DNA from: a virus
Length of the DNA: 64,000 nt
Virus record (IMG/VR): IMGVR_UViG_3300008255_000099
Span: 96,001 to 160,000 of that record
Strand: one strand, 5' to 3'
Below the pieces are notes generated by a model that had not been told where the DNA came from, did not search any database, and was given only the letters and a program-made list of their open reading frames with translations. Numbering within the stretch: the stretch's first letter is position 1; each line of letters begins with the position of its first letter. Below, piece after piece: positions 14,152-49,400 of the stretch. The position numbers and the translations under genes were made by a program.

Positions 14152-14182
14152 TTAGAACCTCCGAATTATTGATTAAATCTAA

Positions 14183-24052: not shown

Positions 24053-27000
24053 TTATCCGCCACAAGTTTCATAATCTTCAAACTTGCATTGTCTACATCT
24101 AATTGCACAAGATCCTGGCAGTTTGACAGTATCACGGCTCCCACATTGAGGGCATGATTTCCCTGCTGGCTTTTCTCTTTTTGAAACACCATTTTGTGTC
24201 TTGTTTTTAGTTTTTATTGCATGAACAACTTTTGCCTCTTGTGGGTCTCTATCGTCATCATCTTCATCTGGGACTTCAACCGCATCTTTATCCCCAAGAT
24301 ATTCATAAGCTAAAACCCTTCCAATTACATCATACATAGATTTTGCCCATTTTATATTATCGTGAAGAACTTGCCCCCTCGGATCTTGTGTGATCGTCCT
24401 CATTGCATCAGTAAATTCTTCCAATGGGACATTGTACTGCAATGAGATGGAGACACACCTTGCAAGCAACCCTAATGTGGTTCTAGCAAAAGCATCTTCC
24501 TCTGCATAATCAATAAATATTTCACCAAGTCTTCCATCTGGATACTCACCTGTCCTCAAAAACATTTTATGTCTTGGTCCATTATACCCACCAATTTCAA
24601 ATTCGTGAGTATAACCAATCCTTTTTCTTGGTAATCTGTGCCGAATCGCTTCTTGGAAAGCTTCAACAGAAAACTCTGCATCTACCTGTTGATCTGTTAA
24701 ATCTGCATTTAACAACAATTTTTCATAATCAATTCCAGAGACAGAATTCAAAGGTTGTGAAAGTTTTGAACCATCACGATATAATGAGATGCATTTTAAT
24801 CCAGACTTGTGAGCTTCAAAATGACAATTTTCTACTTCTTTAATCGTTATTTCATTCGGTGCATTAATTGTATTGTGGTTTATTATTCCGTTTGATATAA
24901 AAGCATGACTATTTGGGACAGAAATATCGAAGACTTCTTTTATCCCATCTTGCTCAGAATATATAACCTTAGAGAAATGTATATTGTTTTCGACTATATC
25001 TATTAGGTTTTTTGGAATATCTATTTTATCATTAATCATATTTTTTATAGTATTAAATGATACATTAGACGTTCTTTTATCCGATAAATAATTATACTTT
25101 ATTCTTAATTCTTTTGGAACCAAACTATATAAATATTTCAAGTTTTGATTAGGAATTATATCAGACGTTGATGGAAAATAATTAGACTCTTTAATTTTTA
25201 TTAATTTTTTATTTCTATACTCTTCATTAAACATCATTATGTTAGATAATAATTGTGCATAATACCCAGAGCAATATAATTCATAATAATTTCTTTTATA
25301 TTTTTTATTATATTTTGCAATTATATTTGATAACACCCCAAGGTTTGATAATATATTTTTTAAATCTAATATTATAGATTTTGAGTTTAAGCAAATTCCA
25401 ATCTTTGAATTATATTTTTCATAAACCACATAACCATCTGACATCAATCCATTTATAAAATAAATTATATTATTTTTTGTTGATTGTAATATACAATCTG
25501 GAATTGTTTTTTCATATGATATATTGCCAATATTTATATTATTAAAAAATTCACAAAGATATTTAGACGAAATCCTAAGACAAGGGCATTTGTTTTCTGT
25601 CTCAATTATTTTACCATCTATATTAAATATGCTTTTAAACATATTGTTTGCTTTATCTAAAAGATCAATACAACTATTAGTAATTTGTATTGTATAGTTA
25701 GATTTTGAGATATTGCCTTCTGCCATATAGAATCCAATTAACCACGACAAATCATCACTCATTTTATCTGGAATATTTATTTCTTTTTGAGCCCCCCATT
25801 TTTTTGATAATTTAAAATTAAATTCATTTGATAATTTAAAATTAAATTCATTTGAAGACCATAAATCAGATCCTATTTTAGTCGCAACATAATCTTTGTT
25901 TTGAATATTATATAGTTGTTTCCATTCTAAATTTCCATCATCATTCATACAATACAAGGGGTGATTAAATGTTCCAGTAATTTCACTGCCGTCTTTTAAA
26001 ATTATTTTCTTAACTGGTTTAAATCCACCATAATAAAAAGAATCTGTATTTTCACGAGAATCAATTGAATCAATTTTAATATTACAATTAGAAAAGGTAT
26101 TGGGTAATTCATTGCTCCGCAGAGAACCTATTCTTAATAATCCTCTATCCGTAAATAAGAGACTTTCACCAGTTATACATTTTGAAATAGATCCACTTAG
26201 GAATGGTTGGACAGCACTAACAGCACGGATATGGGCTAGATAAGGGATATATCTAGTGCCATAATCCCCACACTTACTAGCACAATCAAAAATGACATAA
26301 TGATCTTCATTTAAGTATGGTGCCCCTTCTACTGTACCTCTACCACAAATGTAATCGTTAGCCTCTCTTATTTCTTCTTCTGAAAATCCTAGATAATTTA
26401 TAATTGAAAAATAATCATCTGCTAACATTTCTTCTGGTATTTTTAAAACATCCTTACAAAAACTTTCTCCAAGGACAAACTTGTTAAATGAATTAGAGAT
26501 GTGATAAGCTCCATCTAATGATTTATTTAATGATTCAATTTGTTCTATTGAGAATTTTTTTCTAATTAATGTTTCGATATTGATATTCGGACATTTATCA
26601 TCTATAATCTTTTTACCAATGATATAATCTATAATTTCTATTATCTGATTTTCTGTATAACCAAGATTTTTCAGAGCAATTGGGACACTGTTGTTAGCTA
26701 TTTTCATATATCCACCACCAGAAAGCTTTTTGTATTTAATTAAAGCAAAATCTGGTTCAATTCCCAATGTGTCACAATTCATAACAAGCCCAATTGTTCC
26801 GACTGGTGCAATCACAGAAACAAAAGAGTTCCTAAATCCGAATTCTTCGCCAAGTTCTAAAACCTGATCCCAAATTTGCCTTGCTTTAACCAAAAGGTAT
26901 TCTGGGCAATAATCTATATCTATTCCTCGTGGAGCAACATTTAAATCTTCATATTCTTCTGACAAAGAATTGTAAGAAGCCCTCCGGTGGTTTCTAATAA

Positions 27001-29587
27001 CCTTCAACATACAATCTTGGTTGTCTTCATATCTTGGGAAGGGACCAATTTCCTTTGAAAGCATTGCACTTGTTTTGTATGCTTGACTTGTCATCAATGA
27101 TGTAACAACACCCATCCAAGCTAAAGCCTCTTCACTATCATAAGGTATCCCTTGTCTCATTAGCAAAGCACCTAGATCAGTGTAGCCAACTCCGATTGTT
27201 CTATAATTATATGTCCCCTGTGCAATCCCAGGTGTTGAAAGAATAGCACCTTCGACAGACATTTCCAGTGCAATTGTTACTAAGTTGCATAGATGAAGAA
27301 ATTTTTCAATATCAAATTCTTCATCAAAAAACTTGGTCAATCTGATTGAACAAAGGTTACAGGCAGTATCATCCAAAAAATGATATTCTCCACAGTTAGA
27401 AACAACAATCCCATTAGCAACAAAATAATGTGTATAATTTTCAGTTAGATCATACACATCTTCATTGATATTATTATCTTCGAAAGAGACAATAACATCA
27501 GTTAAATCGTCTGAATAAAATTCATATTTCAATATTTCTTCAAGTTTGTTTTGTTTATCACTAGACTTATGTAAACTTATCTCATTATAAAACTTTATAA
27601 TATTTTCTTTATAAATTCTTAAAGAGTATTCTTCTGTTTTTAAAATTTTTGATTTTATTCCAAAAGAAAGAAGAAGTAGTTGAACTTGTTTTAATAAATT
27701 AAGAGATTTTAGATTTAATGAAACATCTATTACCCCACTTGACAAATTGAACGCAACTATTCCATCGGAGATAAATAAATCTGAGATAATAGACGCAACA
27801 GATTCTTTATTTAATGAAAAAACCTCATCTATAAAAGATTCTTGATTAATCTCAGAATTTAAAATTATGTATTCTTTTCGATTGTCAATTTCTTTTTCCC
27901 CGAATGGGGATCCTATTAGATTTATTTTGTCTTCTCCTAAAACTATTTCACTAGCTTTAACTTTTCCTTTGCCTATAACTCCTAATTTATGATCTTCTGT
28001 TAAATCAATTTCATAGCCACAACTTGTCGTTAATTTATATGTTCTCTTATTACCTGTTAAAACAATATTCGTAGCACGATGAAGTTCTCCATCAGAACCT
28101 ATGATATCAATCTCTTTCCCAATTATATCTTTAATTTTTTGTAGCCCATTTTCTGTCGCTACAAATGTCTCCCCACTAACACAAGGGTTACTTGACACAA
28201 TTCTTCCGTCGTTTGAACAAGTGTTCCAAGAATTAATTGTTGTGTCAAAGAAAACACCAGGATCTGCACAAGACCATGAGGATTGATTTATCTTATCCCA
28301 AAGACTTCTAGCCTTCATTGTCTTGAAAACTTTTTTATCAATCCTGTTAACTAAATTCCAATCAACATCTTGTTCAACTGCCTTTAAAAACTCATCTGTT
28401 AAACTAACAGAATTGTTAGAATTTTGTCCAGAAACAGTTCGATATGCATCGCCGTTAAAAGAATTGTTTAATTCACAAAAATCAAAAGATTTAACTCCTT
28501 GTTTTGCAAGAGATATCGCTCTAAATACATAATTAAGTTCAACTTCATTTTCTTTTGCTTCTTGAATTAAGTTAAGAATGTTAGGATGTTCTTCTGAAGC
28601 CTCTTCACCAAGATCATTCCATTCTTTAATTATTTTGTTCAAAATTCTGTTGTTAATTTTAGATCCTGTGATCAAACTAGCAACTTTCTGCTCTTCCTTT
28701 GATTTCCAATCAATAAATTCCTCAATCTCTGGGTGATCTACATTCAGAACAACAATTTTTGCCGCCCTGCGGCTTACTCCACCTGATTTTACAGAATCAG
28801 CAGAACGATCAAAAATCTTCAAGAAGCTCATTAATCCACTTGATTGTCCTCCACCACTCAAACCTTCATTAGCACCTCTCAACTTCGAGAAATTTGAGCC
28901 CACCCCAGAACCTCTTTTGAAAACTTTTGCTTCTGTTGATAATTGCTCATAAATGCTATTTTCTCCGAACATAGAATCTTCTATTGGAAGGATGAAGCAC
29001 GCTTGGCTTTGCTGTCTAACAATGGATTCTTCTGGATTTAAAGAAGCCTCTTTGATTGTTCCTGTTTTTGGATCAAAATAAAAATAACCAGGATCTTTAT
29101 TTTCAATTCCGTAAGCCCAACCCAATCCAGTGTTAAACCATTGAGGAGAATTCGGAGCCCACATCTGATGAATTAAACCATAAGCCAATTCATCAAAAAA
29201 ACAATCTGCCTCTTCAATTGTTTTCACTAACTTGCTTTTAATTAACCAATATGTCCAAGTCCCAACCATCCTGTCAATGCATTGTTTTAAAGAATTCTCT
29301 CCTGAAAATTCTGCTCCTTCTGCTGGGACAGAACGATAATATTTTTCAAATCCTTCAAGCTCTTTTTCTACGACTTTAATTGTTGAATTCGGAACTTGTT
29401 TTCTTCTGAAATATTTAGAAGCTAAAATATTGATTGCATTTTGTTCCCAAAAATCTGGGACTTCAACATTGTCTTGTTTAAAAATAATAAGACCAGATTC
29501 ATCCAACACCTCTGCAACACAGGACTTCCATACGACTTCATCATAAACACTTCCATCACCTTTTGTAAAAACTCTCTTAAACTCCAT
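24053..29587 (-). CDS. nrdJ: Class II (adenosylcobalamin-dependent) ribonucleotide reductase with two inteins
   Basis: APNSPQWFNTG, QSQACFI, GSGVGSN, RRAAKI, reconstituted NP-CGE and TACNL, SVIAPVGTIG, GIEPDF, SISK-TIN, YRDGSK, C-terminal RLPRKR...GEYPDGRLGEIF and Zn ribbon. Confidence 0.96.
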   Translation of the reverse strand: MEFKRVFTKGDGSVYDEVVWKSCVAEVLDESGLIIFKQDNVEVPDFWEQNAINILASKYFRRKQVPNSTIKVVEKELEGFEKYYRSVPAEGAEFSGENSLKQCIDRMVGTWTYWLIKSKLVKTIEEADCFFDELAYGLIHQMWAPNSPQWFNTGLGWAYGIENKDPGYFYFDPKTGTIKEASLNPEESIVRQQSQACFILPIEDSMFGENSIYEQLSTEAKVFKRGSGVGSNFSKLRGANEGLSGGGQSSGLMSFLKIFDRSADSVKSGGVSRRAAKIVVLNVDHPEIEEFIDWKSKEEQKVASLITGSKINNRILNKIIKEWNDLGEEASEEHPNILNLIQEAKENEVELNYVFRAISLAKQGVKSFDFCELNNSFNGDAYRTVSGQNSNNSVSLTDEFLKAVEQDVDWNLVNRIDKKVFKTMKARSLWDKINQSSWSCADPGVFFDTTINSWNTCSNDGRIVSSNPCVSGETFVATENGLQKIKDIIGKEIDIIGSDGELHRATNIVLTGNKRTYKLTTSCGYEIDLTEDHKLGVIGKGKVKASEIVLGEDKINLIGSPFGEKEIDNRKEYIILNSEINQESFIDEVFSLNKESVASIISDLFISDGIVAFNLSSGVIDVSLNLKSLNLLKQVQLLLLSFGIKSKILKTEEYSLRIYKENIIKFYNEISLHKSSDKQNKLEEILKYEFYSDDLTDVIVSFEDNNINEDVYDLTENYTHYFVANGIVVSNCGEYHFLDDTACNLCSIRLTKFFDEEFDIEKFLHLCNLVTIALEMSVEGAILSTPGIAQGTYNYRTIGVGYTDLGALLMRQGIPYDSEEALAWMGVVTSLMTSQAYKTSAMLSKEIGPFPRYEDNQDCMLKVIRNHRRASYNSLSEEYEDLNVAPRGIDIDYCPEYLLVKARQIWDQVLELGEEFGFRNSFVSVIAPVGTIGLVMNCDTLGIEPDFALIKYKKLSGGGYMKIANNSVPIALKNLGYTENQIIEIIDYIIGKKIIDDKCPNINIETLIRKKFSIEQIESLNKSLDGAYHISNSFNKFVLGESFCKDVLKIPEEMLADDYFSIINYLGFSEEEIREANDYICGRGTVEGAPYLNEDHYVIFDCASKCGDYGTRYIPYLAHIRAVSAVQPFLSGSISKCITGESLLFTDRGLLRIGSLRSNELPNTFSNCNIKIDSIDSRENTDSFYYGGFKPVKKIILKDGSEITGTFNHPLYCMNDDGNLEWKQLYNIQNKDYVATKIGSDLWSSNEFNFKLSNEFNFKLSKKWGAQKEINIPDKMSDDLSWLIGFYMAEGNISKSNYTIQITNSCIDLLDKANNMFKSIFNIDGKIIETENKCPCLRISSKYLCEFFNNINIGNISYEKTIPDCILQSTKNNIIYFINGLMSDGYVVYEKYNSKIGICLNSKSIILDLKNILSNLGVLSNIIAKYNKKYKRNYYELYCSGYYAQLLSNIMMFNEEYRNKKLIKIKESNYFPSTSDIIPNQNLKYLYSLVPKELRIKYNYLSDKRTSNVSFNTIKNMINDKIDIPKNLIDIVENNIHFSKVIYSEQDGIKEVFDISVPNSHAFISNGIINHNTINAPNEITIKEVENCHFEAHKSGLKCISLYRDGSKLSQPLNSVSGIDYEKLLLNADLTDQQVDAEFSVEAFQEAIRHRLPRKRIGYTHEFEIGGYNGPRHKMFLRTGEYPDGRLGEIFIDYAEEDAFARTTLGLLARCVSISLQYNVPLEEFTDAMRTITQDPRGQVLHDNIKWAKSMYDVIGRVLAYEYLGDKDAVEVPDEDDDDRDPQEAKVVHAIKTKNKTQNGVSKREKPAGKSCPQCGSRDTVKLPGSCAIRCRQCKFEDYETCGG
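24872..26179 (-). mobile_element. Intein 2 in NrdJ (436 aa) with LAGLIDADG endonuclease
   Basis: SISK|CITGESLL...SNGIINHN|TINAP; blocks LIGFYMAEG and FINGLMSDG. Confidence 0.93.
25803..25855. repeat. Perfect 24-bp tandem duplication inside intein 2
   Basis: TGATAATTTAAAATTAAATTCATT x2, giving SNEFNFKL twice. Confidence 0.9.
27395..28183 (-). mobile_element. Intein 1 in NrdJ (263 aa), endonuclease partly deleted
   Basis: SSNP|CVSGETFV...ANGIVVSN|CGEYH; only one LAGLIDADG-like block (ISDLFISDG) visible; ends SN, not HN. Confidence 0.9.
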
Positions 29588-30383: not shown

Positions 30384-30514
30384 CAGTCTCTCCTTCGAAT
30401 CATAATTCTAACTCATATCATTCTTTTTGTATCTTATTATTGCTACAATCAAAAAATTTATACCTCTTTGGTTTAATTAATTTTTGGAATTTTTTTATAC
30501 TTTTTTTGGTTTAG

Positions 30515-30522
30515 TGTATAAT
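30515..30522 (+). promoter_or_regulatory. TGTATAAT promoter-like motif for the prkA cassette
   Basis: 78 nt upstream of prkA ATG; TTTATA 17 nt upstream of the TATAAT. Confidence 0.6.
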
Positions 30523-30599
30523 ACATCAAACGACACCGAATATCATTTAAATTGTGGAAAAACAGATCGGCGTTAATGATTCTTGAAAGGAGCATATGA

Positions 30600-32603
30600 A
30601 TGAACATTTTTGATGTTATCAAACAAGAAAAAGGTAAGATAAATGAAGAAAGCAACAAACTAAAATGGTCTGGAACTATGGAAGAATATGTACAATTAGT
30701 TTTAGACAACCCTAACGTAGCAGCCCTATCACATAAAAGAATGGAGAATATGGTCATTAATAATGGTACGGAATGGGTTGATAAAGAAGACGGGAGAGGG
30801 AAAAGAATAAAATATAAATTCTTTGAAGATAAATTGTTTGGTGTCGAAGATACTATTGAAAAAATAGTTGATTATTTCAAGTCTGGTGGTCAAAGACTTC
30901 CGACTAGAAAAAGAATACTTCTTTTGATGGGTCCTCCTGGTGGCGGGAAATCAACAATTGTAATTTCCTTAAAAGAAGGATTAGAAGAATACACTAAAAC
31001 AGATGAAGGAGCTATCTATAAAATCAAAGGATGCCCAATGAACGAAGAGCCTCTTCATGCTCTTCCAAAATCAGTTCATGATATTTTGCTTGAAGAGCAT
31101 AAAATTTTCACAGAGGGAACTTTGTGCCCTGTCTGTAAATGGCGATTGGACAATGAGTTTGATGGTGATTGGACAAAATTCGAAGTCGAAAGATTTATTT
31201 TTGACGAACAAACCAGAAACGGGATTGGAACCTTTGCCCCATCTGACAGAAAAGTTCAAGACATTGCCGAATTGGTGGGTTCAATCAACCTTGCAAAAAT
31301 AGGTGATTTCGGAGATGAATCAGATCCAAGAACTTATGATTTCAACGGTGAATTAAACATTTCCAACAGAGGTATGGTTGAATTTATTGAGATGTTAAAA
31401 GCTGGTGATGAATTCCTTTATGCTTTGTTAACTCTTTCACAAGAAAACAACATAAAAACACCAAGGTTCTCTTTGATCTATGCAGACGAAGTAATCATTG
31501 CACATACCAACGAGACAGAATGGCAGAAATTCATTTCAAAACCAGAAAATGAAGCATTAAGAGATAGGGTTATTACAATAATTTCTCCTTATAACTTAAA
31601 ATTAAGAGATGAAGTTAAAATTAATGAAAAACTTCTTAATGAATCTGGGCAAAAAGATATTCATATCGCACCACATACATTAGAAGTAGCTTCTATGGTT
31701 GCAATTATGTCCAGACTCGATCTTCCGAAAGATACTTCAATTGATTTAATTAAAAAGATGAAAGCATACAATGATGAGGAAGTTGAAGGTTTAAGAAGAC
31801 AAGAAGTAGATGAAATGAAAAGCTCTTCTGAAAGAGAAGGGATGGATGGTCTTGGACCAAGATATATTTCTAACTGCCTCTCAAAAGCTATTACAAAATC
31901 AAGAGAAGAACTCAGAAAAAGAATATCTGAACAAGACACAAGTGATCTTTACGCTGTTAAGACAGAAGAGCTTGAGAAAATGAAGATTCCATTTGATCCA
32001 ATTATGATTATGCATAGCATTTTAAGTGAAATCCGTGAAGATCCTAAAATGCCACACGACCAAAAACAAAAACTTGAGAACATTGTTCAAATGGCAAAAG
32101 AAGAGTTCGACAGATTGGTAACAATTGATGTCCACAAGGCTTTTGTCTATGGTTTCGAAGATGAAGCTAAAGATATGTTCAAAAGTTATATTGATCATGC
32201 AATATCATATTGTCAAGATGACAAAGTTGTTAATCCGATAACTGGAGAAAAAGAAAATCCGAATGAAGAATTTATGCGCTCAATCGAAATGCACGCAAAT
32301 GTTAAAGAAGCAGCAAAAGATGAGTTCAGAACAGAAATTCTTCGCAGAATGGCCGCATATGGACATCAGAATAAAGAATTTAATTATAACACTCATAAAG
32401 CATTAAAAGAAGCAATTCAAAAAGAGATTTTTGATCGAAGAAAAGATGCTATTCATATGACAACAAATTCAATCAATCCTGATCCAGAACAATTAGAAGA
32501 ATTAAATCGGGTCATCAAGCGCATGTGTACAGAAATGAAATATGATCCAATCTCTGCAAACAGAGCATTGAGATATGTTAGTAGAATTAATTCAAGAGGA
32601 TAA
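30600..32603 (+). CDS. prkA: PrkA/YeaG family AAA+ ATPase (annotated serine kinase)
   Basis: KLFGVEDTIEKIVDYFKSGGQRL, LLLMGPPGGGKST, CPMNEEPLH, DIAELVGSI, SDPRTYDFNGELNISNRGMVEFIEMLK, AHTNETE, ALRDR, HIAPHTLE, EGMDGLGPRY. Confidence 0.96.
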   Translation: MNIFDVIKQEKGKINEESNKLKWSGTMEEYVQLVLDNPNVAALSHKRMENMVINNGTEWVDKEDGRGKRIKYKFFEDKLFGVEDTIEKIVDYFKSGGQRLPTRKRILLLMGPPGGGKSTIVISLKEGLEEYTKTDEGAIYKIKGCPMNEEPLHALPKSVHDILLEEHKIFTEGTLCPVCKWRLDNEFDGDWTKFEVERFIFDEQTRNGIGTFAPSDRKVQDIAELVGSINLAKIGDFGDESDPRTYDFNGELNISNRGMVEFIEMLKAGDEFLYALLTLSQENNIKTPRFSLIYADEVIIAHTNETEWQKFISKPENEALRDRVITIISPYNLKLRDEVKINEKLLNESGQKDIHIAPHTLEVASMVAIMSRLDLPKDTSIDLIKKMKAYNDEEVEGLRRQEVDEMKSSSEREGMDGLGPRYISNCLSKAITKSREELRKRISEQDTSDLYAVKTEELEKMKIPFDPIMIMHSILSEIREDPKMPHDQKQKLENIVQMAKEEFDRLVTIDVHKAFVYGFEDEAKDMFKSYIDHAISYCQDDKVVNPITGEKENPNEEFMRSIEMHANVKEAAKDEFRTEILRRMAAYGHQNKEFNYNTHKALKEAIQKEIFDRRKDAIHMTTNSINPDPEQLEELNRVIKRMCTEMKYDPISANRALRYVSRINSRG

Positions 32604-32607
32604 AAAC

Positions 32608-32844
32608 ATGACTTATGATATAATTATTCCAATTCAAGGAATGTGTTCAGAATCAAAAACAGATTTAGCCAAAAGGATTAAATCTATTTTGAAAGAAGAA
32701 TACAAACGGGTCGATGTTTTATGTGAAGATGACGATGGATTCCATGATGGTCTTTCTGAAAATGAAACAATTTTAATCAGGACAGTTCCAACCCCTGATG
32801 ATTATTATAATAACATACCTAAAGTAATTTATGGAGAGGTTTAG
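32608..32844 (+). CDS. Hypothetical protein inside the prkA cassette
   Basis: In-frame ATG 32608 with GAGGA SD. Confidence 0.6.
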   Translation: MTYDIIIPIQGMCSESKTDLAKRIKSILKEEYKRVDVLCEDDDGFHDGLSENETILIRTVPTPDDYYNNIPKVIYGEV

Positions 32845-32852
32845 AGGTTTAA

Positions 32853-33266
32853 ATGAGTTATTTAATTTTAAAATGTGAACATTTCAAAAAAGATTTAAAT
32901 GCAATACCAATTATTTATGATGAAGAGAATTCTTTTAAAGAAGCAAATAAAAAATTTGCTTCTTTAAAAGAATTAGAAAATCTTCAAAGTTTTTATATCG
33001 AAGTTGATGATGCTAAAAAGTTTAAATGGGACGAAGATTTGTTGATGTTAAGCATCTCAACAGATGATTTTTTATTTTTTAATTCAATACTTGATCAATT
33101 AAGAACTTTTAGAAGGCTTTTCCTTCCTTGTTTAACTCTTGAACCAATTTTTGGTGAAATGCAGAAAATAGAATTTTTAAACAATTTTTCAATTGATTTT
33201 TCATTAGAAGAAGTTTTAAACACACCATTAATTACAGTTGTTATGGTTGATTTGCTTGAGGAGTAG
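32853..33266 (+). CDS. Hypothetical protein inside the prkA cassette
   Basis: 137 aa, GAGG SD. Confidence 0.6.
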   Translation: MSYLILKCEHFKKDLNAIPIIYDEENSFKEANKKFASLKELENLQSFYIEVDDAKKFKWDEDLLMLSISTDDFLFFNSILDQLRTFRRLFLPCLTLEPIFGEMQKIEFLNNFSIDFSLEEVLNTPLITVVMVDLLEE

Positions 33267-33270
33267 AAAA

Positions 33271-33479
33271 ATGTCATTAATTGAAAGGAATAAATTTGAA
33301 GAAAAAGAGAAGACAATATCTGGGCATAATCCATTAGAAGGACGAGCTATTTTAAAATAATTGTTTTAGCAGATGATGGTTGTGATTATAATTGGGAAGA
33401 AAGGACATGGAGTCACATAGAAATGAATCCATCTGAAAAAATAGATATAGATAAATCTTTAAATAGTTTTTATAATTAA
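33271..33479 (+). pseudogene. Small ORF interrupted at a T_TTA_AAA_TAA site (possible -1 frameshift gene or 1-nt deletion)
   Basis: GAGGAG SD, 29 codons to TAA 33358; -1 frame continues IIVLADDGCDYNWEERTW...FYN* to 33479. Confidence 0.35.
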
Positions 33480-33497
33480 GAAAAGAAAGGTAAAAGA

Positions 33498-36158
33498 ATG
33501 CCAACACACAAAGTAGTTAGAGACTTCGAATTATTTCGAAGAATTAAAAAAGATGTTAAACGGCACAATGAAAGATTGAGAGATGCTATCAAGAAAAATC
33601 TACATGATATTATCGCTAATGAAAACATTATCACTAGTGATAAAAATAAAACATTAAAAGTTCCCATTCGACAATTAAAAACATGGCAATTCAACTATGA
33701 TTTTAAGAGAATGCAGAGGACAGGGCATGGAGATGGCCGTGGGACATTAATCAAAAAGGGCAAAAGAGCTAAAACACAATGCCCAACTTGTGGAGATATC
33801 TTTGAGGTAAATAGAGATAACGTGTTTTATCTTTTCGGCCCCACAAGGAACAATCTTATGAATTTCGACAATCAAAACGACCCAGACGCTTCAATGCAAG
33901 CTTCCGATGATAAATACGCCGAAGGCAAGGGCGGAAAAAGAAGAACGATCCCAGGGCATCTAATGGGGCGTGAGCAACAAGGTGGTGAAGGTGGAGATGG
34001 GGTACAGGGCGGTGAATTAGCTGGTGAAGAATACTATGAGACTGATGTCCCGTTGTCAGAAATAGAGAAAATACTATTTGAAGAATTGGGCTTGCCATAT
34101 TTAGAAGACAAAGGTCAAAAGAAAGTTAAAGCTCAAAATTATAAATTTGAGGAAATAGTAAAATCTGGACCTGTATCACATCTTGCAAAAAGACAATCTA
34201 TTAAAAGAAATATAAAAAGAAGAACTATTCTCAAACAAAAGGGAATAGGTCGTTTTTGGAATGAGGATCTTAGATATAGATCTTGGGAAGTAGACGAAGA
34301 AGAAGAGAGTTGTGCAGTTGTTATAGCAATGATTGATAGCTCGGGTTGTCTTACCGAAGGGCATATGATAGAAATGGCAAATGGTTCATATAAAGATATC
34401 TCAGAAATAAAAATAAATGATAAAGTAGCATGTATCGATTTAAATACACATAAAAAAACAACATCTTCTGTTTCAAATAAATTTGAATATATTGTTGATA
34501 AAACAATAAAAATAAAAACAGAAGATACAGAGCTTAGATCTACTGGTAATCATAAATTTTTTATAATTGATTCTAAAAATGGGATTATTGAAAAAAGAGC
34601 AGATGAAATACAAGAAGGGGATGAATTAATATTAGTTAATTCATGGGGAGATACGGCTATATCTCATTCGTCTGTTTTAACAGAAAATAAAGCATATTTA
34701 TTGGGGGCCATATTAGGAGATGGAATATTATATATTCCTAAAAAGAAAGGACAATATGAAACTTGTATAAGAATATTTGATAAAGATATTTCTAATCTTA
34801 ATAGATATAAAAAATTATTTAAAGAAGAATTTAATACAATTGGAATTATTAAAATAGATAGAAATGAAAATTGTCATAAAAATAGTTTACATTTAAATAA
34901 TTCAAAACTAACAAGAGAATTATCTAATGAATATCCTATGTTAATAAAAAAATCCAGAGAGACATATGTAGATAATATTATTTTTACAGAAGAACCAAAA
35001 ATAAGAGCTTCTTTTATCTCTGGGTTGTTTGATGCAGAAGGGTCCGTATCTGAGCATACGGTTAATATGTCGTCATCAAGCCATATGCTTGTTAAACAAA
35101 TAAAGTTATTATTATCCTATTGGGGAATAAGAGCAAGAATAATAGAAGAATATCAAAAAGACAGAAGTATTAATGGGCATGTATTACCAAATAATAAATA
35201 TTATTTATTATCAATTAATTCTAAAGATTGTATTTTATTTCAAAAATATATTAATTTTAGATCTATATCAAAGATAAATAAATTAAACAAATTAATCCGT
35301 AGGCAAGAATCCGGTATTAATGCTATGACGAGTAAATATATACCTAATTTTAGATGGAGAGAAGAATTGTCTAATATTCCAAAAACATCAAGGGTATATT
35401 CTTATTATAACAATGATAATTATGGTATATCTAAATCAGCATTAATGACAATATTATCAGATAATAAAATAACAAACATAGATAGGATAAAAATAGAAAA
35501 AACACTATCTAATAAACTTATAATATCTAAAGTTAAAAATGTTAATATAATTGATAGTACTACTAATGTATATGATTTTGAGGTTGAAAATTATCATAAT
35601 TATATAGTTGATGGGATATTAAGTCATAACTCAATGGACGAAAACAAAAAATTCTTGGCTCGATCTTTTTATCTTTGGATGGTTAGATTTCTTCAAAGTG
35701 AATATGATAACGTTGATATTGTGTTCATCAATCACCACACAGAAGCAAAAGAATGTACAGAAGAAGAGTTTTTCAAGAGGGGTGAAAGCGGTGGGACAAA
35801 ATTCTCTAGCGCTTATAAACTTGCTTTAGATATCCTGCGAGAAAGATATTCGCCGACAGATTGGAACTCATATTTGTTCCATTTTAGCGACGGTGAGAAC
35901 TGGTATGGAGATAATGAAATTTTATTCCCAATTATGAAAGAGATATTGAATTATCCGTGCAATCTATTGGGATATGGGGAAATTTCAGAAGATCAAGTTG
36001 AAAACCATCCAAATTGGTGGCATCCATCAACAAACTTTGCTGATATGCAAAAGAATTTCAAAGAACATGAAAGATTTATTGCAACAAAAATCCATAGTGT
36101 TAAAGATATTAAAGATGCTTTAACAATATTCTTTGATAAAACGAAACAAGCAAATTAA
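33498..36158 (+). CDS. yeaH: YeaH/YhbH (DUF444) vWA-domain protein with intein
   Basis: RHNERLRDAIKKNLHDII, KVPIRQL, EEYYETDVPL, ELGLPYL, EDLRYRSW, AMIDSSG|SM (MIDAS), FINHHTEAKE, ESGGTKFSSAY, YLFHFSDGENW, GYGEI. Confidence 0.93.
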   Translation: MPTHKVVRDFELFRRIKKDVKRHNERLRDAIKKNLHDIIANENIITSDKNKTLKVPIRQLKTWQFNYDFKRMQRTGHGDGRGTLIKKGKRAKTQCPTCGDIFEVNRDNVFYLFGPTRNNLMNFDNQNDPDASMQASDDKYAEGKGGKRRTIPGHLMGREQQGGEGGDGVQGGELAGEEYYETDVPLSEIEKILFEELGLPYLEDKGQKKVKAQNYKFEEIVKSGPVSHLAKRQSIKRNIKRRTILKQKGIGRFWNEDLRYRSWEVDEEEESCAVVIAMIDSSGCLTEGHMIEMANGSYKDISEIKINDKVACIDLNTHKKTTSSVSNKFEYIVDKTIKIKTEDTELRSTGNHKFFIIDSKNGIIEKRADEIQEGDELILVNSWGDTAISHSSVLTENKAYLLGAILGDGILYIPKKKGQYETCIRIFDKDISNLNRYKKLFKEEFNTIGIIKIDRNENCHKNSLHLNNSKLTRELSNEYPMLIKKSRETYVDNIIFTEEPKIRASFISGLFDAEGSVSEHTVNMSSSSHMLVKQIKLLLSYWGIRARIIEEYQKDRSINGHVLPNNKYYLLSINSKDCILFQKYINFRSISKINKLNKLIRRQESGINAMTSKYIPNFRWREELSNIPKTSRVYSYYNNDNYGISKSALMTILSDNKITNIDRIKIEKTLSNKLIISKVKNVNIIDSTTNVYDFEVENYHNYIVDGILSHNSMDENKKFLARSFYLWMVRFLQSEYDNVDIVFINHHTEAKECTEEEFFKRGESGGTKFSSAYKLALDILRERYSPTDWNSYLFHFSDGENWYGDNEILFPIMKEILNYPCNLLGYGEISEDQVENHPNWWHPSTNFADMQKNFKEHERFIATKIHSVKDIKDALTIFFDKTKQAN
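34347..35630 (+). mobile_element. Intein in YeaH (428 aa) with LAGLIDADG endonuclease
   Basis: DSSG|CLTEGHMIEMANG...VDGILSHN|SMDE; blocks LLGAILGDG and FISGLFDAEG. Confidence 0.93.
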
Positions 36159-36174
36159 CTGAAAGGAAATATTA

Positions 36175-38988
36175 ATGAGCTTCAATATAATATCTATTTC
36201 TGAACAAGATAAGAAATTAAATAAAGTAATAGAAGTAATTGACAAAAAAGCAAAAGAACTCGGACTAGAACATAATGATACAATTTTTGAGATTGTATCA
36301 CAAGATAGAATGAGGGAACTTTCAAGTTATGTTTTACCAATAAGATATCATCACTGGACATTCGGTCGTGATTACTACAAACATAGAACAATGGATAAAT
36401 ATGGTCGAGGTGGTAGGCTTTATGAAATGGTTATAAATAGCCAACCAGCTTATGCTTGGTTACTTGATTCAAATAGTTTAATGGAAAACAAACTTGTTGT
36501 AGCACATGTTTTCGGGCATGTTGATTTTAGCGAAAACAATATGCTGTTTAACACAACAGATAGAAGGATTGTTTCATCAGCAGCAAAAAATGCTGAAATT
36601 GTATCTGGTTATGCCTTTAAATATGGGGAAGAAGAAGTTGAACGATGGATAGATGCTTGTTTGTCACTTTCTTGGAACATAGAACTAAACACAACAAAAG
36701 TAGAAAGTAGAAAATGGATTACAAAAAAAGATTCATTGAATGTCAATGATATAAATTCAGATTTAAATAAAATGTTCGAAAATTTTGATGAGTTAGATCC
36801 TGTTTTTCTTGCTGAAAAGCTAAAAGAATTGTTGGTTTATAAACAAAAGTTAGAAGAACCAGAACCAATGATGGAAAAAGATCTTCTTCTTTATTTTATT
36901 TATAATGCAAAAAATCTTTCAAAATGGCAAAAAGATGTAATGTCAATCATCCGTGAAGAACAAAGATATTTTAGGCCAAATATTCAAACAAAAAATATTA
37001 ACGAGGGATGGAGTTGCATTACAAAAGATTCTCTAATCTCTACCAATAAAGGATTTATTCCTATTAAAGAATTATTTGAAATAAAAAATGATATTTTAAT
37101 TAGAAATTTAAATAAATTAACATCAATTAGTGATTTTTATACTTCTAATCAAGGAAAAATAATTAAATTAACACTTAGGAACGGGTTGATCATCAGGGGG
37201 CTAGAAGATCATAAAGTACAAATCTGGAATGGGGTTAATCAAGAAACCAAATTACTAAAAGACATAACAACAGATCACAAAGTTATAACTGGTCTAAACC
37301 AAAATATTTGGTCTAATAAAGATTCTAATGTAGATTTTAATATAAAATTTGATAAAAATGTTGGGGAATCTAAATTAATGCATTTGAATATGCCTGATAG
37401 AATTAATAAAGACATTTCAAGATTATTAGGATATATAGTTGCAGAAGGATGTTTTGCTAAAAGAGAAATAAGAATTGTTAATAAAGATATAAATCTACTT
37501 ATTGATGGATACAATATATGTAAAATTAACTTTAATTATGAACCAGTATTAAAAGCTAGAAAAGCTTTTAATGAAATTGGTGAATATGATTTAAAAATAT
37601 ATTCTTCTTATGTTAGAAGATTTTTTGAGTTATGTGGATTAAAAAATGTCAAATCTATTGACAAAGAGATTCCTTCCTTAATTCTTCAATCAACGAAAGA
37701 AACTATTTGTTCTTTTCTTTCAGGATTGTTTGAAGGGGATGGATGCATCTCAGTTAAGTCAAGACAATTAATTTTTATTAGTAAGTCTCAAAAGTTAGTT
37801 TTTCAAGTTGCCATGTTGATGAACAACCTTGGAATTAACACATCTTATGGTAAAAATAAAAAGAAAGGACATAAAGATTGCCATAGATTAACAATAAGCA
37901 CCAAGAAAAATCTTGAAAAATTCAGAGATGAAATTGGATTTATTTCAGACAATAAAATAGGGAAGCTTAATAATGCTATTAGTAGTTATATGTGGTCAAA
38001 GTCTAGGAATGAGCAGATAGAATTAGACGGGAACGACGAATGGCAAGCTACTGATGTTTTTTCAATTGAAGAAGATGGATTTGAAGAATGCTATGATATA
38101 ACTATTCCAGAAGGGCATGTTTATGTTGCTAATGGGATTCTTAATCATAATTCGTGGTGGCACAGAAAAATATTAATGGATTTAGATGTTGAGTGTGATT
38201 TTTTAAGAGAAGACGACGAAGACATGCATTTAAAATTTGCAGCTATGCATAGTAATGTTGTAAGCCCAACATCTCTTGGATCTTTTCATCCATATTTTGT
38301 TGGTTTTAAGATGTGGGATCATATCTTTCAAAAACTTCAAAATCCAGATGAGAATTTTAAGAAAAACCATGGAATTGAAAAACCACTAACAGAAAAAGAA
38401 GCTATTGAACAAATGAAAATTTATAGAGAGTTTAATAGTGACATTTCATTTTTTAGGAATTTTCTTGATGATGAATTAGTCGAAGAATTAGACTTATTTA
38501 ACTTCAGATTAATTCATGATGAATGGTTGGTTACCTCAAACAAACCTAAAGATGTTATAGAGAATTTATGTCATATCAAATCAAATGCTGAAATTCCACA
38601 AATTTTTATTGTTAATGACAATCATAATGATGATGGTGAACTTTATTTAATCCAAGATTATGACGGCAGATTGATAGAGGAAGAAACAATTAAAAAAGTT
38701 ATGGAATATATAGGAAAAATTTGGATTAAACCAATTCATTTAGAGTGTGTCCAAAGATATAATGATGAATTGGTTATAGATCTAAAAACAAATAAAAAAA
38801 GCTTAATAGAAGGAGACGAATATATCAAAGTATACACATATACTGGAAAAGACAAGTTAGATACTAAAACCATTCCTTTTTTCCCGAGGAGCATTTCAGA
38901 GAGAGCTAAACTTGAAGCGACCTCAACTCTTCGAAAAATTAAAGAGAATCGAAAAAGAATGGAAAATCAGATAAATAGCATCAATTAA
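36175..38988 (+). CDS. spoVR: SpoVR/YcgB family protein with intein
   Basis: LPIRYHHWTFG, LYEMVINSQPAYAWL, LVVAHVFGHVDFSENN, EKDLLLYF, KWQKDVMSIIREEQRYFRPNIQTKNINEGW, HPYFVGFKMW. Confidence 0.95.
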   Translation: MSFNIISISEQDKKLNKVIEVIDKKAKELGLEHNDTIFEIVSQDRMRELSSYVLPIRYHHWTFGRDYYKHRTMDKYGRGGRLYEMVINSQPAYAWLLDSNSLMENKLVVAHVFGHVDFSENNMLFNTTDRRIVSSAAKNAEIVSGYAFKYGEEEVERWIDACLSLSWNIELNTTKVESRKWITKKDSLNVNDINSDLNKMFENFDELDPVFLAEKLKELLVYKQKLEEPEPMMEKDLLLYFIYNAKNLSKWQKDVMSIIREEQRYFRPNIQTKNINEGWSCITKDSLISTNKGFIPIKELFEIKNDILIRNLNKLTSISDFYTSNQGKIIKLTLRNGLIIRGLEDHKVQIWNGVNQETKLLKDITTDHKVITGLNQNIWSNKDSNVDFNIKFDKNVGESKLMHLNMPDRINKDISRLLGYIVAEGCFAKREIRIVNKDINLLIDGYNICKINFNYEPVLKARKAFNEIGEYDLKIYSSYVRRFFELCGLKNVKSIDKEIPSLILQSTKETICSFLSGLFEGDGCISVKSRQLIFISKSQKLVFQVAMLMNNLGINTSYGKNKKKGHKDCHRLTISTKKNLEKFRDEIGFISDNKIGKLNNAISSYMWSKSRNEQIELDGNDEWQATDVFSIEEDGFEECYDITIPEGHVYVANGILNHNSWWHRKILMDLDVECDFLREDDEDMHLKFAAMHSNVVSPTSLGSFHPYFVGFKMWDHIFQKLQNPDENFKKNHGIEKPLTEKEAIEQMKIYREFNSDISFFRNFLDDELVEELDLFNFRLIHDEWLVTSNKPKDVIENLCHIKSNAEIPQIFIVNDNHNDDGELYLIQDYDGRLIEEETIKKVMEYIGKIWIKPIHLECVQRYNDELVIDLKTNKKSLIEGDEYIKVYTYTGKDKLDTKTIPFFPRSISERAKLEATSTLRKIKENRKRMENQINSIN
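37015..38151 (+). mobile_element. Intein in SpoVR (379 aa) with LAGLIDADG endonuclease
   Basis: NEGWS|CITKDSLI...ANGILNHN|SWWH; blocks LLGYIVAEG and FLSGLFEGDG. Confidence 0.93.
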
Positions 38989-39001
38989 GAATGGAGAAAA
39001 A

Positions 39002-39358
39002 ATGAACAAAGAAAATAAAATAGTTGATAACGAAGATATTGATTATGTAGAAGATGATGATGTAAAAGTTCTTTTAGTTAAGGGGGCAAATGCATCAAAA
39101 GATTCTGTGGTTAGGCTTGCAAGAGCAATAATGGTAAGTCTTCAACAACATAGTTATGCCGATCTTCAAGCAATAGCACCACCTGCAATCAACAGGCTTA
39201 TGAAAGCATATATAAAATCAAAGAGCATGTTTCAAGACTATGCTAATGGATACGGGTTAGTGATGCAGGCGAGTTATACAAAAACAGAAATAAATGGGAA
39301 TTTAACGACAGCAATTAGAGCAAGGATTTTTGCAGTCCCTAATGCTTATATTAGATAA
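39002..39358 (+). CDS. spoVS: SpoVS-like protein (Alba-type fold)
   Basis: VLLVK...SVVRLARAIM..LQQHSYADLQAIAPPAINRLMKA...GLVMQASY...INGNLTTAIRARI aligns with SpoVS LKV..SVAGAIA...AEIQAIGAGAVNQAVKA...DL...PAF...IDGEERTAI. Confidence 0.75.
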   Translation: MNKENKIVDNEDIDYVEDDDVKVLLVKGANASKDSVVRLARAIMVSLQQHSYADLQAIAPPAINRLMKAYIKSKSMFQDYANGYGLVMQASYTKTEINGNLTTAIRARIFAVPNAYIR

Positions 39359-39386
39359 AAAGTTAAATTAAAATATCATAAAAAAG

Positions 39387-39423
39387 ATCAGAGATACCAG
39401 AATTTGGTATCTCTGATTTTTTG
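39387..39423 (+). terminator. Intrinsic terminator closing the prkA-spoVS cassette
   Basis: ATCAGAGATACCA-GAATT-TGGTATCTCTGAT followed by T-tract; A-tract upstream makes it usable on both strands. Confidence 0.8.
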
Positions 39424-46464: not shown

Positions 46465-49400
46465 CTAAAATGGAAGTTTATCTGAATCACCATCAATTAT
46501 TTCAGACCAATCGCTAGATAGATTAAATAAATCTGATAAATCTTCTGGTACATCTTTCTCAAATTCTTCCGTTTTCTTTATTTTTGTGATTTCATTTTTG
46601 ATATCGACTATCATTTCTTTCATTTGATTTCTACCGATATTCAATGCTACATCTGAAATAAAACAATCACAAGCACCACCATCAATTAGCTTTTCCAGAA
46701 CCATTTTGTTAGGTCTCGCTCTATAACAAAAATCTTTAAAATTCTTGTATTGTTGTGTCTCTCTTGATTCTATTACACTAATAGCATTTTTACCAATACC
46801 TTTAATGAAATTCAAAGGAAGGACGATTGCAAATTCACCAGAATTTTCATAATTATAATCGACAAAACAATCAAGTGTTGATGTATTAACATTTGGATAA
46901 ACAAAAAGAATATTAGCATTTGTTTGTTTGTTGATCTTGTTAATTTCATCTATGTACATCAAAACTTTATCTTCTTTTTCTATATCTTCATTGATGCTTG
47001 CTGCATACCATTCATGCGGGAAATAATTAAGAAGATAAGCGTTCCAATAAGCGCTTAATCCATAAACTGTGCTGTGAGCTTTGTTGAAACTATAACTAGC
47101 AAAATCTTGTGCTAAATTCCAAATTCTTTGAACTACATCTTTTGAATAATTATTTCTTTCTGCACCATCAAAAAATTTCTTTCTGCACCATTCGAAAAGA
47201 TCACCATCTTTTTTGCCAACTGCTTTTCTTAAAACATCGGCTTCTGAAAGTGTAAACCCTCCAACAACTTGAGCTATTTGCATGATCTGTTCTTGATAAA
47301 CTAAAATTCCATAAGTACTTTCAAGAATTGGTTCTAGATCTTTATGAATATATTTAATCTTGTCTGGATTCTTTTTGTTTTCAGCATAGGTAATCCCCGG
47401 TGTCCATTTAGGATCTTTCTCTGGATCCCTTTGTTTATCATACATGTCTTTTGAGATGTATTTCATTGGGCCAGGACGATTCAAAGCGTTGATTGCAACA
47501 ATATCATTAAAACTATCAACACCAACCTGCTGTGGCTTCAACATTTCTTTCACATGAGGCCGCCAAAATTGAAAAACAGTCGAGGTCCATCCTTGTGAAA
47601 AGATACTCAAAGCACCCTTATCATTTCTATCTACAGATCTAAAATCAATTTCGATGCCATCATCTGGCCTATTCTTAATATATTCTAAACATCTAGAAAG
47701 CTTTCCAACATTTGACAGACCAAGAAAATCGAATTTAATGTATCCTGCACTTTCCATGTCTGACAAATCAAACTGTGACACAATTGCATCTTTTGCTTTA
47801 TGAAGAGGAATTTTATCCATCAAATTATGTGGCGAAATGACTACCCCAGCAGCATGTTCAGAAACTGCACTAAAAGCAGATCCTTCAATAATCGCTGCGT
47901 TGTCCACCACAGAGCGTTTTACACCAAGCCGACGGAGCGCCTGTGAGACCTCCTTAGCCTTGAGAGCATCAACAATGCTCTCTGCCCCCTTCGGGATAGC
48001 CTTGGACACGCTGAGGGCATCCTCGTGGTTTATACCGGCATCCTTGAGCGCCCCAACGAGGCAAGAGCGGGTCGAGAAGCCCTGATAAGTTCCAATGTTA
48101 ACAACATGATCTTGTCCATACTTTTCAATGACATATTCAATAACTTCATGCCTTCTCTTATGATCAAAGTCAGAATCGACATCGGGCAAAGAGCCCATTT
48201 TGTAAACTTCGAGCGGGCCATCGGGTGCCTCTTGAACAAGATCTAGGCAATAAGCGATCCATGAGTTTACAGGGTTTCCATCAATCTGGATGTCTTTGCT
48301 AATCAAATCGTAGTAATAGTTATCAAGATTTTGATTTTCCAATGGCAATATTTCTCGAATTAAGCTTGGGGTGTATTGGCGGAATTGATCGCTTTCCATC
48401 ATCTTCCCAACAAGTTCTCTTAATTTACCAGTTGATTCTGTTTCGCCGCCATCTTCTTTCCATTGAGAAACCGGATATTCTTTAAATTCGAATTTGTATT
48501 GACTTGAACGACCAGGATTTAAGAATCTTTCAAACATCAGGTTGAGTTCTGGATCTAATGGATCAACGAAAGAAATCTCAAGCAGATAGAGGACAAGAGA
48601 ACCAGCGCCACTATTATGTACAACAAAATTTTGTGTTAAATATGAAGAATCATCATCAATTGATAAATCATAAACAAAATCATTTGTTGTTTCTGAAATA
48701 TTCTTAATTTTTATAAAATAACCATCTTCTAGATTTGAATGTTTTTTATCTTTTTCAAGTTCTAATCCCTTAAATCTTATCCTATATGATTCTTTACAAT
48801 TATAATTACCAATTTTATAAGGAGCACTCCTACTTATATAATTTGGTATTTTTAGGTATAATAAACATTCTCTTAAATCTAATAATAATCTATAACTAGT
48901 TGTATCTATATTCTCTCTTTTAATTTTTTTAGATAATTCATTACTTCCATTTGAATGTTTTAAACCCAATAACAATTGTCTTAATAAAGAATCTTTTACA
49001 TATTTAAATTTACCGATATATTTTGTAGATGAGGAAAATTTATAATCTTTAAATAGACATGAAAATAGTTTGGTTATAATTTTATTATAAATATGTACTT
49101 GAATAAGATTTTTGTCTTTATGTTTAGTTATTTTAGGATTTAATCCTAGTTTTTCTAAATAAAGACATATTCTATTTATTCCATTAAAATCTTCAGAATG
49201 AAAAGATATTCCTAATCTATATTTTTTTTCTTCTTCAGAATGCTCATACCATCCGTCTCCAATCCATCTCCCACAAAAATAAAACCAATCTTCATCTTGT
49301 TCTATATATCTAGAAAATCTTGTGGTCTCATTTTTTGTTAATGGATTAATTAATATTATTTCATCATCTGTTGTTTTATAATTACTATCAACAAATTCAG

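Follow-up and report, generated by a model that had tools for sequence, protein, structure and literature searches.

PrkA (YeaG, SpdA), YeaH (YhbH) and SpoVR (YcgB) are encoded by one operon in most bacteria, and the three genes are tightly cofit and act together (Price et al., 10.1101/072470). In Escherichia coli, YeaG is needed for a starvation-induced and largely nonspecific degradation of cytoplasmic proteins that yields amino acids and ATP (PNAS 2026, PMC13684143), and YeaG and YeaH together have been described as a metabolic brake (PMC10954441). A slow ATP-dependent protease activity was reported for the Bacillus subtilis PrkA (PMC9512850), whereas the purified B. anthracis PrkA was assigned to clade III of the AAA+ proteins, with a YME1-like pore loop and neither protease activity nor a protease site (J Bacteriol 2026, PMC13001217). 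For SpoVS, an Alba fold and binding to nucleic acids are predicted (PMC2732212, PMC11621453). The PrkA-YeaH-SpoVR trio is also present in deposited phage genomes, namely those of the Thermus phages phiYS40 (2006), TMA, Lalka8, phiLo and MN1, of the Ralstonia jumbo phage RsoM2USA and of the huge phage LR756511; in PMC8504454 such phage genes are merely listed, with no functional study. The present analysis concerns a 64,000-nucleotide stretch of viral DNA (the window), corresponding to bases 96001-160000 of the 183-kb IMG/VR virus record IMGVR_UViG_3300008255_000099, in which genes of all four families form a single cassette.

The cassette block occupies positions 30600-39358 on the plus strand, among replication genes located on the minus strand, and the sign of the guanine-cytosine (GC) skew is reversed across it. 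The original prediction of four same-strand genes opposed to their flanking replication genes was confirmed, and the anatomy of the cassette is secure. By analogy with E. coli, the cassette is read here as a phage-run version of the host YeaG/SpdA system for protein turnover and quiescence in starvation, a reading that is favored tentatively and held with slightly less than even confidence.

Genes of the cassette and their conservation

The identities originally proposed for the four proteins are upheld by Pfam profile matches in every case. The first gene (30600-32603, plus strand) encodes a PrkA/YeaG-family AAA+ ATPase of 667 aa, which carries no intein in this phage. The protein matches AAA_PrkA (PF08298) at 1.8e-114 (383 bits for a 25-bit cut-off, profile positions 2-355 of 358) and PrkA_C (PF06798) at 4.1e-58 (197.5 bits, profile positions 1-255 of 255). 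It displays the Walker A motif GPPGGGKST at aa 111-119, is colinear over residues 17-662 with the solved structure 9xip (E 7.4e-118) and is 44-47% identical to proteins of Acidobacteriota, Chloroflexota and Bacillota. Such a protein could also serve in signaling, PrkA acting as a Ser/Thr kinase of host or phage proteins with YeaH and SpoVR as regulators. Autophosphorylation of YeaG and phosphorylation of casein have indeed been reported (cited in 10.1101/072470 and PMC10954441) and the PF06798 domain is distantly kinase-like, but no kinase activity was detected for the B. subtilis PrkA, whose Hanks motifs are degenerate (PMC9512850), and a kinase role is considered very unlikely.

The genes for YeaH (DUF444, vWA; 33498-36158, plus strand, 886 aa) and SpoVR (36175-38988, plus strand, 937 aa) are about twice their usual length, each of them holding a LAGLIDADG intein. 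YeaH matches DUF444 (PF04285) at 8e-80 (269 bits for a 27-bit cut-off) over the length of the family, in four stretches broken by the intein. Its best NCBIfam model is TIGR02877 (spore_yhbH), with 362 bits, under the equivalog cut-off of 468. Residues T767 and D798 of the metal ion-dependent adhesion site (MIDAS) are invariant among five phage YeaH proteins. The N-terminal part of YeaH also displays an insertion of about 75 residues (aa 86-160, window positions 33750-33980), lacking in the other phage YeaH proteins, in which a CPTC pair and an acidic stretch rich in Gly occur. The SpoVR family (PF04293) is matched at 4e-89 (299.6 bits for a 27-bit cut-off) in two stretches, and the match to SpoVR_C (PF24755), located in the part that follows the intein, is weak (20.9 bits, beneath the 27.6-bit cut-off). 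Residues H111, H115 and D117 of SpoVR are invariant, as are the N, E and G of its NEGW motif.

The fourth gene (39002-39358, plus strand) directly follows spoVR and encodes a SpoVS-like protein of 118 aa. Its own match to PF04232 is modest (31.8 bits for a cut-off of 24, profile positions 7-82 of 83). When the SpoVS-like proteins of related phages (the clade described below) are combined into a profile, this nevertheless matches the Thermus thermophilus SpoVS structure 2eh1 at 8.7e-11 over the whole 86-residue domain, and on the basis of this profile match membership of the SpoVS family is considered settled. The protein begins with a tail of about 26 aa that is acidic (charge -6), followed by a basic core of the Alba-fold type with an isoelectric point (pI) of about 10; across the clade, the cores are basic (pI 8-10) and the acidic N-terminal tails measure 26-67 residues. 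Word-based homologue searches recovered the query alone, both for this protein and for the long intein-bearing YeaH, and were uninformative; a profile search was used instead and returned 329 SpoVS-like representatives. Many of these, about 200-220 aa long, have two domains in tandem (P0125, P0136, P0144, P0147-P0152); one such gene, at locus L109, lies on a 1.5-kb contig.

The same four-gene order, in the same genomic slot, was found on metagenomic contigs of at least six further lineages, whose PrkA proteins are 44-69% identical to the one described here. Neighboring genes are kept as well, with a reductase on one side and an exonuclease, a primase and a RecA-like gene on the other. The SpoVS-like gene is retained after spoVR in loci L006, L007-9, L010, L106 and L107/8, that is, in every clade member that could be inspected. 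Compared with L006, the trio proteins are 61-67% identical and the SpoVS-like protein 42%. The proportion of synonymous differences (pS) is 0.79-0.90, meaning that synonymous sites are saturated, while the proportion of nonsynonymous differences (pN) is 0.22 for PrkA, 0.25 for YeaH, 0.25 for SpoVR and 0.41 for the SpoVS-like gene. The ratio of nonsynonymous to synonymous divergence (omega) is an upper bound only, as the synonymous divergence from L006 is saturated. The further assemblies do not differ from the window and offer no polymorphism for a population-level pN/pS. Strong purifying selection on all four genes is clear, and neutral evolution, the outcome that had been named as damaging to the original prediction, is not what these values describe.

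These data bear on the simplest alternative, in which the cassette is passenger DNA, a cargo or a landing pad for homing inteins that brings no benefit to the phage. Huge phages can often do without their auxiliary genes under laboratory conditions, and inteins are selfish elements. Purifying selection is nevertheless strong on all four genes, their synteny is kept across lineages separated by saturated synonymous divergence, several unrelated phage groups appear to have acquired the trio independently, and inteins persist only where loss of the gene is costly. The passenger explanation is disfavored by the selection data and appears extremely unlikely.

In a PrkA tree, the 11 proteins of the clade are monophyletic, with a support of 100 in the Shimodaira-Hasegawa-like approximate likelihood ratio test (SH-aLRT), and a long stem separates them from Bacillota, Chloroflexota and Acidobacteriota. 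This topology fits a single old acquisition by the ancestor of the clade. The tree was obtained by a quick IQ-TREE search with SH-aLRT support only, and its long branches (RsoM2USA, LR756511 and the Thermus phages) are unreliable. The deposited trio phages fall on separate branches, which suggests separate acquisitions, their placement being unsure on account of these long branches. Independent trio lineages comprise the Thermus phages, RsoM2USA, LR756511 and the IMG/VR loci L011 and L013. The PrkA of L011 (IMGVR_UViG_3300013772_000002, 105 kb) groups with Thermomicrobium and not with any phage clade; the trio may have been captured recently, or the contig may belong to a bacterium or a prophage. 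Clade members with the same synteny (L006, L007, L010, L106, L107) span 30-56% GC, a spread that suggests hosts of very different base composition.

Among the 80 nearest bacterial loci, nearly all of those with enough flanking sequence have the trio side by side. The idea that the four genes form one unit is supported by the conservation of their order and slot in at least six lineages, but the co-linearity of the trio is no phage innovation, since it forms one operon in most bacteria. The SpoVS-like gene is distributed differently. None was found within 10 kb of prkA at any of the 80 nearest bacterial loci, or in the whole records of phiYS40, Lalka8, RsoM2USA, LR756511 and one IMG/VR phage. 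This absence is meaningful because the clade profile does detect canonical SpoVS. A paper on T. aquaticus hints at a possible location of spoVS near prkA. No literature report of the PrkA-YeaH-SpoVR-SpoVS four-gene form was found, and the block has no nucleotide match among 50,697 phage records. The original statement that the four-gene arrangement is not known to have been characterized in a virus is in line with these searches; the trio is already deposited in phages. The IMG/VR scans are no census: a single-protein scan was empty and an alignment-based scan, which relied on two short patterns, returned five loci.

Inteins in YeaH and SpoVR

The YeaH gene is divided into an N-extein (33498-34346, ending in AMIDSSG), an intein of 428 aa (aa 284-711, 34347-35630) and a C-extein (35631-36158, starting with SMDENKK), all on the plus strand. 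The intein starts with Cys1, contains a TGNH block B and two LAGLIDADG motifs, and ends in SHN before Ser+1, so that its junctions read AMIDSSG/CLTEGH...GILSHN/SMDENKK. In SpoVR, likewise on the plus strand, the N-extein (36175-37014, ending in NINEGWS) includes the invariant AHVFGHVDF, the intein of 379 aa (aa 281-659, 37015-38151) has Cys1, two LAGLIDADG motifs and a terminal NHN before Ser+1, and the C-extein (38152-38988) starts with SWWHRK, with junctions NINEGWS/CITKDS...GILNHN/SWWHRK. Profile matches support both elements. For the YeaH intein they are Intein_splicing (81 bits, cut-off 35.8) and LAGLIDADG_3 (8.8e-13, 48.8 bits). For the SpoVR intein, LAGLIDADG_3 is matched at 3.1e-22 (79 bits), Intein_splicing reaches 31 bits, under the 35.8-bit cut-off, the TIGR intein_Cterm model scores 25.6 bits for a cut-off of 15.6 and intein_Nterm is also matched. 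Alignment with the intein-free alleles of L006 and L010 leaves single gaps of exactly 428 residues in YeaH and 379 in SpoVR, between near-identical flanks.

The insertion sites are located inside the MIDAS of YeaH and inside NEGW(A/S)-(S/T)xWH, the most conserved motif of SpoVR. The MIDAS sequence DSSGSM is complete solely in the predicted spliced product (DSSG/intein/SM) and the NEGW(A/S) motif is split in the same manner; both motifs are consequently interrupted in the gene and in the unspliced protein. The original prediction had described the Walker, MIDAS and SpoVR motifs as intact. This is correct for Walker A and has to be amended for the two others, which are interrupted at the gene level. 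To judge from the junctions, the function of YeaH and SpoVR would depend on protein splicing.

Intein occupancy varies within the clade. L010 has none in PrkA, YeaH or SpoVR, and L006 has one in PrkA and none in the other two. L007-9 carry inteins in PrkA and SpoVR and none in YeaH. On L107/8, SpoVR is intein-bearing, YeaH has none (L108) and PrkA was not seen on the contig. In the phage described here, YeaH and SpoVR are occupied and PrkA is free. The PrkA inteins of the sister phages (genes at L006:6337-9621 and L007:6976-10374) use two sites: one, with an intein of 427 aa, follows IEMLK close to the Walker-B-like region, and the other, with an intein of 430 aa, follows PSDPK. The cassette of the clade therefore comprises four intein insertion sites in three genes, all in highly conserved motifs. 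Identity is only about 26% between the YeaH and SpoVR inteins, and likewise between them and an intein of the neighboring reductase; they are hence not recent copies of one another.

Bacterial genes are occupied at the same positions. The YeaH gene of L040, a metagenome-assembled genome of Blastocatellia (11985-14444 on a 2.3-Mb contig), holds an intein at the same MIDAS site that is 49% identical over 428 residues, which points to an exchange, in either direction, between this phage group and Acidobacteriota-like bacteria. The NEGWA/S site of SpoVR, also the one used in the sister phage L007, holds relatives of the phage SpoVR intein (E 1e-20 to 1e-31) in the bacterial loci L045 (Pyrinomonadaceae), L048 (Acidobacteriota) and L101 (Ktedonobacter sp. 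SOSP1-85), and a SpoVR-like intein of Chloroflexus aurantiacus is listed in InBase (bioRxiv 10.1101/2025.01.02.630785). In most carriers, whether phages or bacteria, the AT content of the intein exceeds that of its exteins, L101 being an exception by overall GC, and base composition gives no direction of transfer for this reason. Within a limited coverage of the literature, no report was found of inteins at the MIDAS of YeaH or at either of the PrkA sites, nor of inteins in phage copies of the cassette genes. Inteins are not confined to the cassette: the class II ribonucleotide reductase of the window (1844 aa, 24053-29587, minus strand) has two LAGLIDADG inteins and the DNA polymerase III (PolIII) alpha subunit (1493 aa, 46465-50946, minus strand) has one, bringing the total to at least five inteins within 64 kb.

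Proposed function and alternative explanations

The proposed mechanism can be summarized as follows. The ancestor of the clade would have acquired the PrkA(YeaG/SpdA)-YeaH(YhbH)-SpoVR(YcgB) module once, from a donor of Terrabacteria type, and this phage-owned module would then have been extended with a SpoVS-like, Alba-fold nucleic-acid-binding protein. The cassette would form a transcription unit of its own amid the replication genes. The YeaH and SpoVR precursors would splice out their LAGLIDADG inteins, by which the MIDAS and the NEGW(A/S)-S-x-W-H motif would be rebuilt, and the spliced proteins would assemble with PrkA into a complex in which PrkA would be the AAA+ motor, YeaH the vWA/MIDAS adaptor and SpoVR a zincin-like partner. 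Such a complex may drive or redirect protein turnover in the host cytoplasm, in the manner of YeaG/SpdA in starved E. coli. For a phage replicating in nutrient-poor cells, the gain would consist of amino acids and energy, or of a silenced host metabolism. The SpoVS-like protein might tie the machine to DNA or RNA, or regulate it. Complex formation, proteolysis, the benefit to the phage and the role of the SpoVS-like protein are what we infer in this scheme. The presence of inteins in the most conserved motifs of three genes is the usual signature of genes that a phage cannot lose. As the B. anthracis PrkA has no protease site (PMC13001217), a partner peptidase would be needed, and attention was devoted to SpoVR in this respect.

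The structure of SpoVR was predicted for the intein-free protein of the sister phage L006, with 38 homologues. The mean predicted local distance difference test (pLDDT) value was 81 for the full-length model and 80 for the N-terminal domain. In an exhaustive VIA search with both models, the 50 best rows were essentially all of the zincin fold and mostly catalytic domains of metallopeptidases, with Z scores up to 11.7 and 10.6 for the two models and 170-200 residues aligned on the catalytic domains. The neighbors include M1 aminopeptidases, LTA4 hydrolase and M2, M3, M4, M9, M30, M32, M36 and M61 peptidases, and zincin-fold proteins that are not peptidases, such as TAF2 and, for the domain model only, YbeY. 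In the predicted model the invariant H-V-(L/F)-G-H lies inside a long helix and NEGWA opens a later helix; NEGWA resembles NEGFA, the third-ligand motif of the M1 enzymes. On these models SpoVR is probably, though far from certainly, zincin-like in fold, with the support for this fold coming entirely from the VIA alignments. The replacement of the catalytic Glu by Val implies that SpoVR may be a pseudo-peptidase or another metal enzyme, and it may still function in the manner of a metal-binding hydrolase. SpoVR is not counted as a member of the zincin (HExxH) clan, given that it lacks the catalytic Glu; profile-level peptidase homology was not found either. The division of roles foreseen in the original prediction, into motor, adaptor, effector and nucleic-acid binder, is compatible with the modeled fold and remains reasonable.

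A number of observations weigh against the turnover reading and against its catalytic part in particular. The resemblance to zincins is of middling strength, as Z scores of about 10-12 are within the chance range for helical models. Foldseek searches with both SpoVR models, in two runs, returned nothing significant, the best rows being at chance level. An hhalign comparison of SpoVR with an M1 alignment gave a probability of 1.5%, NEGWA/NEGFA alone being aligned, and no peptidase Pfam was found in any of the 38 SpoVR N-terminal domains at E values up to 5. The catalytic Glu of HExxH is, as mentioned, Val in SpoVR. Whether PrkA is a protease, a kinase or a mere unfoldase is disputed (PMC9512850 versus PMC13001217), and the promoter assigned to the cassette is a consensus match only.

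An alternative explanation is the control of dormancy or sporulation, in which the cassette would act as a signaling module or metabolic brake and sense or override the entry of the host into quiescence or sporulation, or its exit. YeaG and YeaH do quiesce metabolism, as mutants regrow faster (PMC10954441), and Bacillus mutants in prkA, spoVR and spoVS are sporulation-defective (PMC9512850, PMC13001217, PMC2732212). The YeaH of the phage best matches the Bacillota-type spore_yhbH model, and SpoVS is found mainly in spore-forming Firmicutes, Chloroflexi, Thermotogae and Deinococcus-Thermus (PMC2732212). The nearest bacterial relatives of the cassette however include many phyla that do not form spores, for example Acidobacteriota and Armatimonadota, the trio is widespread in non-sporulators (10.1101/072470), and no other sporulation genes or sigma factors were seen among the annotated open reading frames (ORFs) of the window. 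Dormancy control is on balance an unlikely explanation, albeit one to be kept in view; it overlaps with the turnover reading and the two are not mutually exclusive.

The machine could also be more selective. In an explanation based on targeted takeover or counter-defense, it would remove or remodel a few specific host proteins (transcription factors, nucleoid proteins or proteins of defense, for example), and its guide to targets bound to nucleic acid would be the SpoVS-like protein. Pairs of AAA+ and vWA/MIDAS proteins often act on specific complexes, as in the MoxR-vWA and midasin systems, and this general precedent speaks for such a role. The location of the cassette in the replication region, of early or middle type, and the basic, Alba-like core of the SpoVS-like protein point in the same direction. 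Against it, turnover in E. coli is largely nonspecific (PMC13684143) and the cassette proteins display no known anti-defense homology. A comparison with the PADLOC models yielded no defense-system match, the sole matches being homing-endonuclease models on the SpoVR intein. Targeted takeover is accordingly rated as improbable.

The turnover reading can be carried further, at a correspondingly lower level of belief. The trio would then be a split degradation machine of the FtsH/YME1 type, in which SpoVR provides a zincin-type metal site, PrkA the unfoldase and YeaH the MIDAS adaptor. Independent phage lineages would use it to cannibalize the proteome of starved hosts, the present clade having gained a SpoVS-like subunit that binds nucleic acids. 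In this phage, the inteins placed within both metal-binding motifs would make activation dependent on splicing, a possible timing or redox switch. This extension is speculative and rather improbable as it stands.

These questions extend beyond a single phage. For a very widespread three-gene module, a role in degradation (PMC13684143) stands against the absence of a protease site (PMC13001217). Several apparently independent acquisitions by phages, kept under strong selection, argue for a direct use in the making of virions, and the Thermus and Ralstonia trio phages are compact, culturable test systems. The SpoVS-like fourth partner, kept across the clade, hints at a link to nucleic acids, and the natural intein insertions single out four motifs as indispensable, namely the MIDAS, NEGW and two in PrkA. 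A zincin-like SpoVR, if confirmed, would name the missing catalytic partner. Should the SpoVR lead fail, the cassette would be a well-documented but ordinary auxiliary module of a kind already seen in phages.

Genomic setting and relation to known systems

The record is viral, as its minus-strand genes include a terminase large subunit, a sliding clamp, a clamp loader, PolIII alpha and DnaB. A primase, a RecA/UvsX-like protein, an NAD ligase and the class II ribonucleotide reductase are further minus-strand genes of the window, and another AAA match is located at 58044-59798. The reductase is the upstream neighbor of the block, and a Cas4-like exonuclease, the primase and the RecA-like gene follow downstream, all on the minus strand. 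Independent assemblies, among them a 111-kb ENA contig and an NCBI contig of 272,967 bp, contain a stretch of 20 kb including the cassette without a single base difference. The borders of the cassette are therefore neither chimeric nor an assembly artefact, and a bacterial or chimeric origin of the contig, which would have undermined the original prediction, can be set aside. The size of the second contig indicates a very large phage.

Two orphan ORFs are located between prkA and yeaH on the plus strand, one of 89 aa (32575-32844) that overlaps the end of prkA by 29 nt and one of 137 aa (32853-33266). Neither has a match in Pfam, PHROG, NCBIfam or PADLOC. Both ORFs and the 231-nt spacer that follows them are found in this phage only, yeaH being placed directly after prkA in the sister phages. 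The 216-nt divergent intergenic region ahead of the block contains a promoter-like consensus match, TTTATA-17-TATAAT (30494-30522, plus strand), with AGGAG 7 nt ahead of the prkA ATG; a second one, TAGATA-17-TATAAT (33448-33476, plus strand), is located in the 231-nt spacer before yeaH. Such TATAAT matches are not enriched, with 46 found for 54 expected in shuffled sequence, and the site ahead of prkA lacks the canonical TGn extended -10 spacing. An intrinsic-terminator-like hairpin (39382-39422) with a 19-bp stem and T runs on both strands lies between the convergent genes and would be bidirectional. With respect to the dedicated promoter and terminator originally proposed, the terminator is well supported by this hairpin and its T run; the promoter string is real, but no more frequent in the window than in shuffles.

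When compared with the bacterial prkA(yeaG/spdA)-yhbH(yeaH)-spoVR(ycgB) module, the cassette displays the same families in the same order and on one strand, with conserved Walker A, MIDAS and HxxGH/NEGW motifs. It differs in being phage-borne, in the deep PrkA clade of its own, in the appended SpoVS-like gene, in the inteins of YeaH and SpoVR and in the two orphan ORFs. The deposited trio phages likewise have the three families adjacent in tailed-phage genomes; their PrkA proteins are 27-35% identical to that of this phage and no inteins were seen in their copies. The order in the Thermus phages, YeaH-SpoVR-(616-aa gene)-PrkA, is unlike that of the present cassette. The 616-aa gene (YS40_058, L002:6091-7941) was considered as a PrkA paralogue and rejected, as it has no similarity to PrkA and no Pfam match. 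With canonical SpoVS (PF04232; 2eh1/2ek0; B. subtilis SpoVS) the fourth protein has the domain in common, to which it adds an acidic tail not found in the canonical form, and its gene is linked to spoVR, a linkage not found at the 80 bacterial prkA loci. The inteins share with known LAGLIDADG inteins the Cys1, the terminal His-Asn, the Ser+1, the insertion in the most conserved motif and the existence of intein-free alleles in relatives; their host genes are phage auxiliary genes instead of replication or packaging genes.

The AAA+ zinc metalloproteases of the FtsH/YME1 type are the most distant term of comparison. The motif of FtsH is HEAGH. The likeness consists of the clade-III assignment and YME1-like pore loop of PrkA, the zincin-fold neighbors of the SpoVR models and the similarity of HV(L/F)GH to HEAGH. 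In the phage module, however, the parts are carried by separate polypeptides, no significant sequence or Foldseek similarity exists, Glu is replaced by Val and membrane anchors are absent, so that the module is not a member of that family. What is specific to this clade and phage is the SpoVS-like fourth gene and the four intein sites, to which the zincin-like models of SpoVR can be added.

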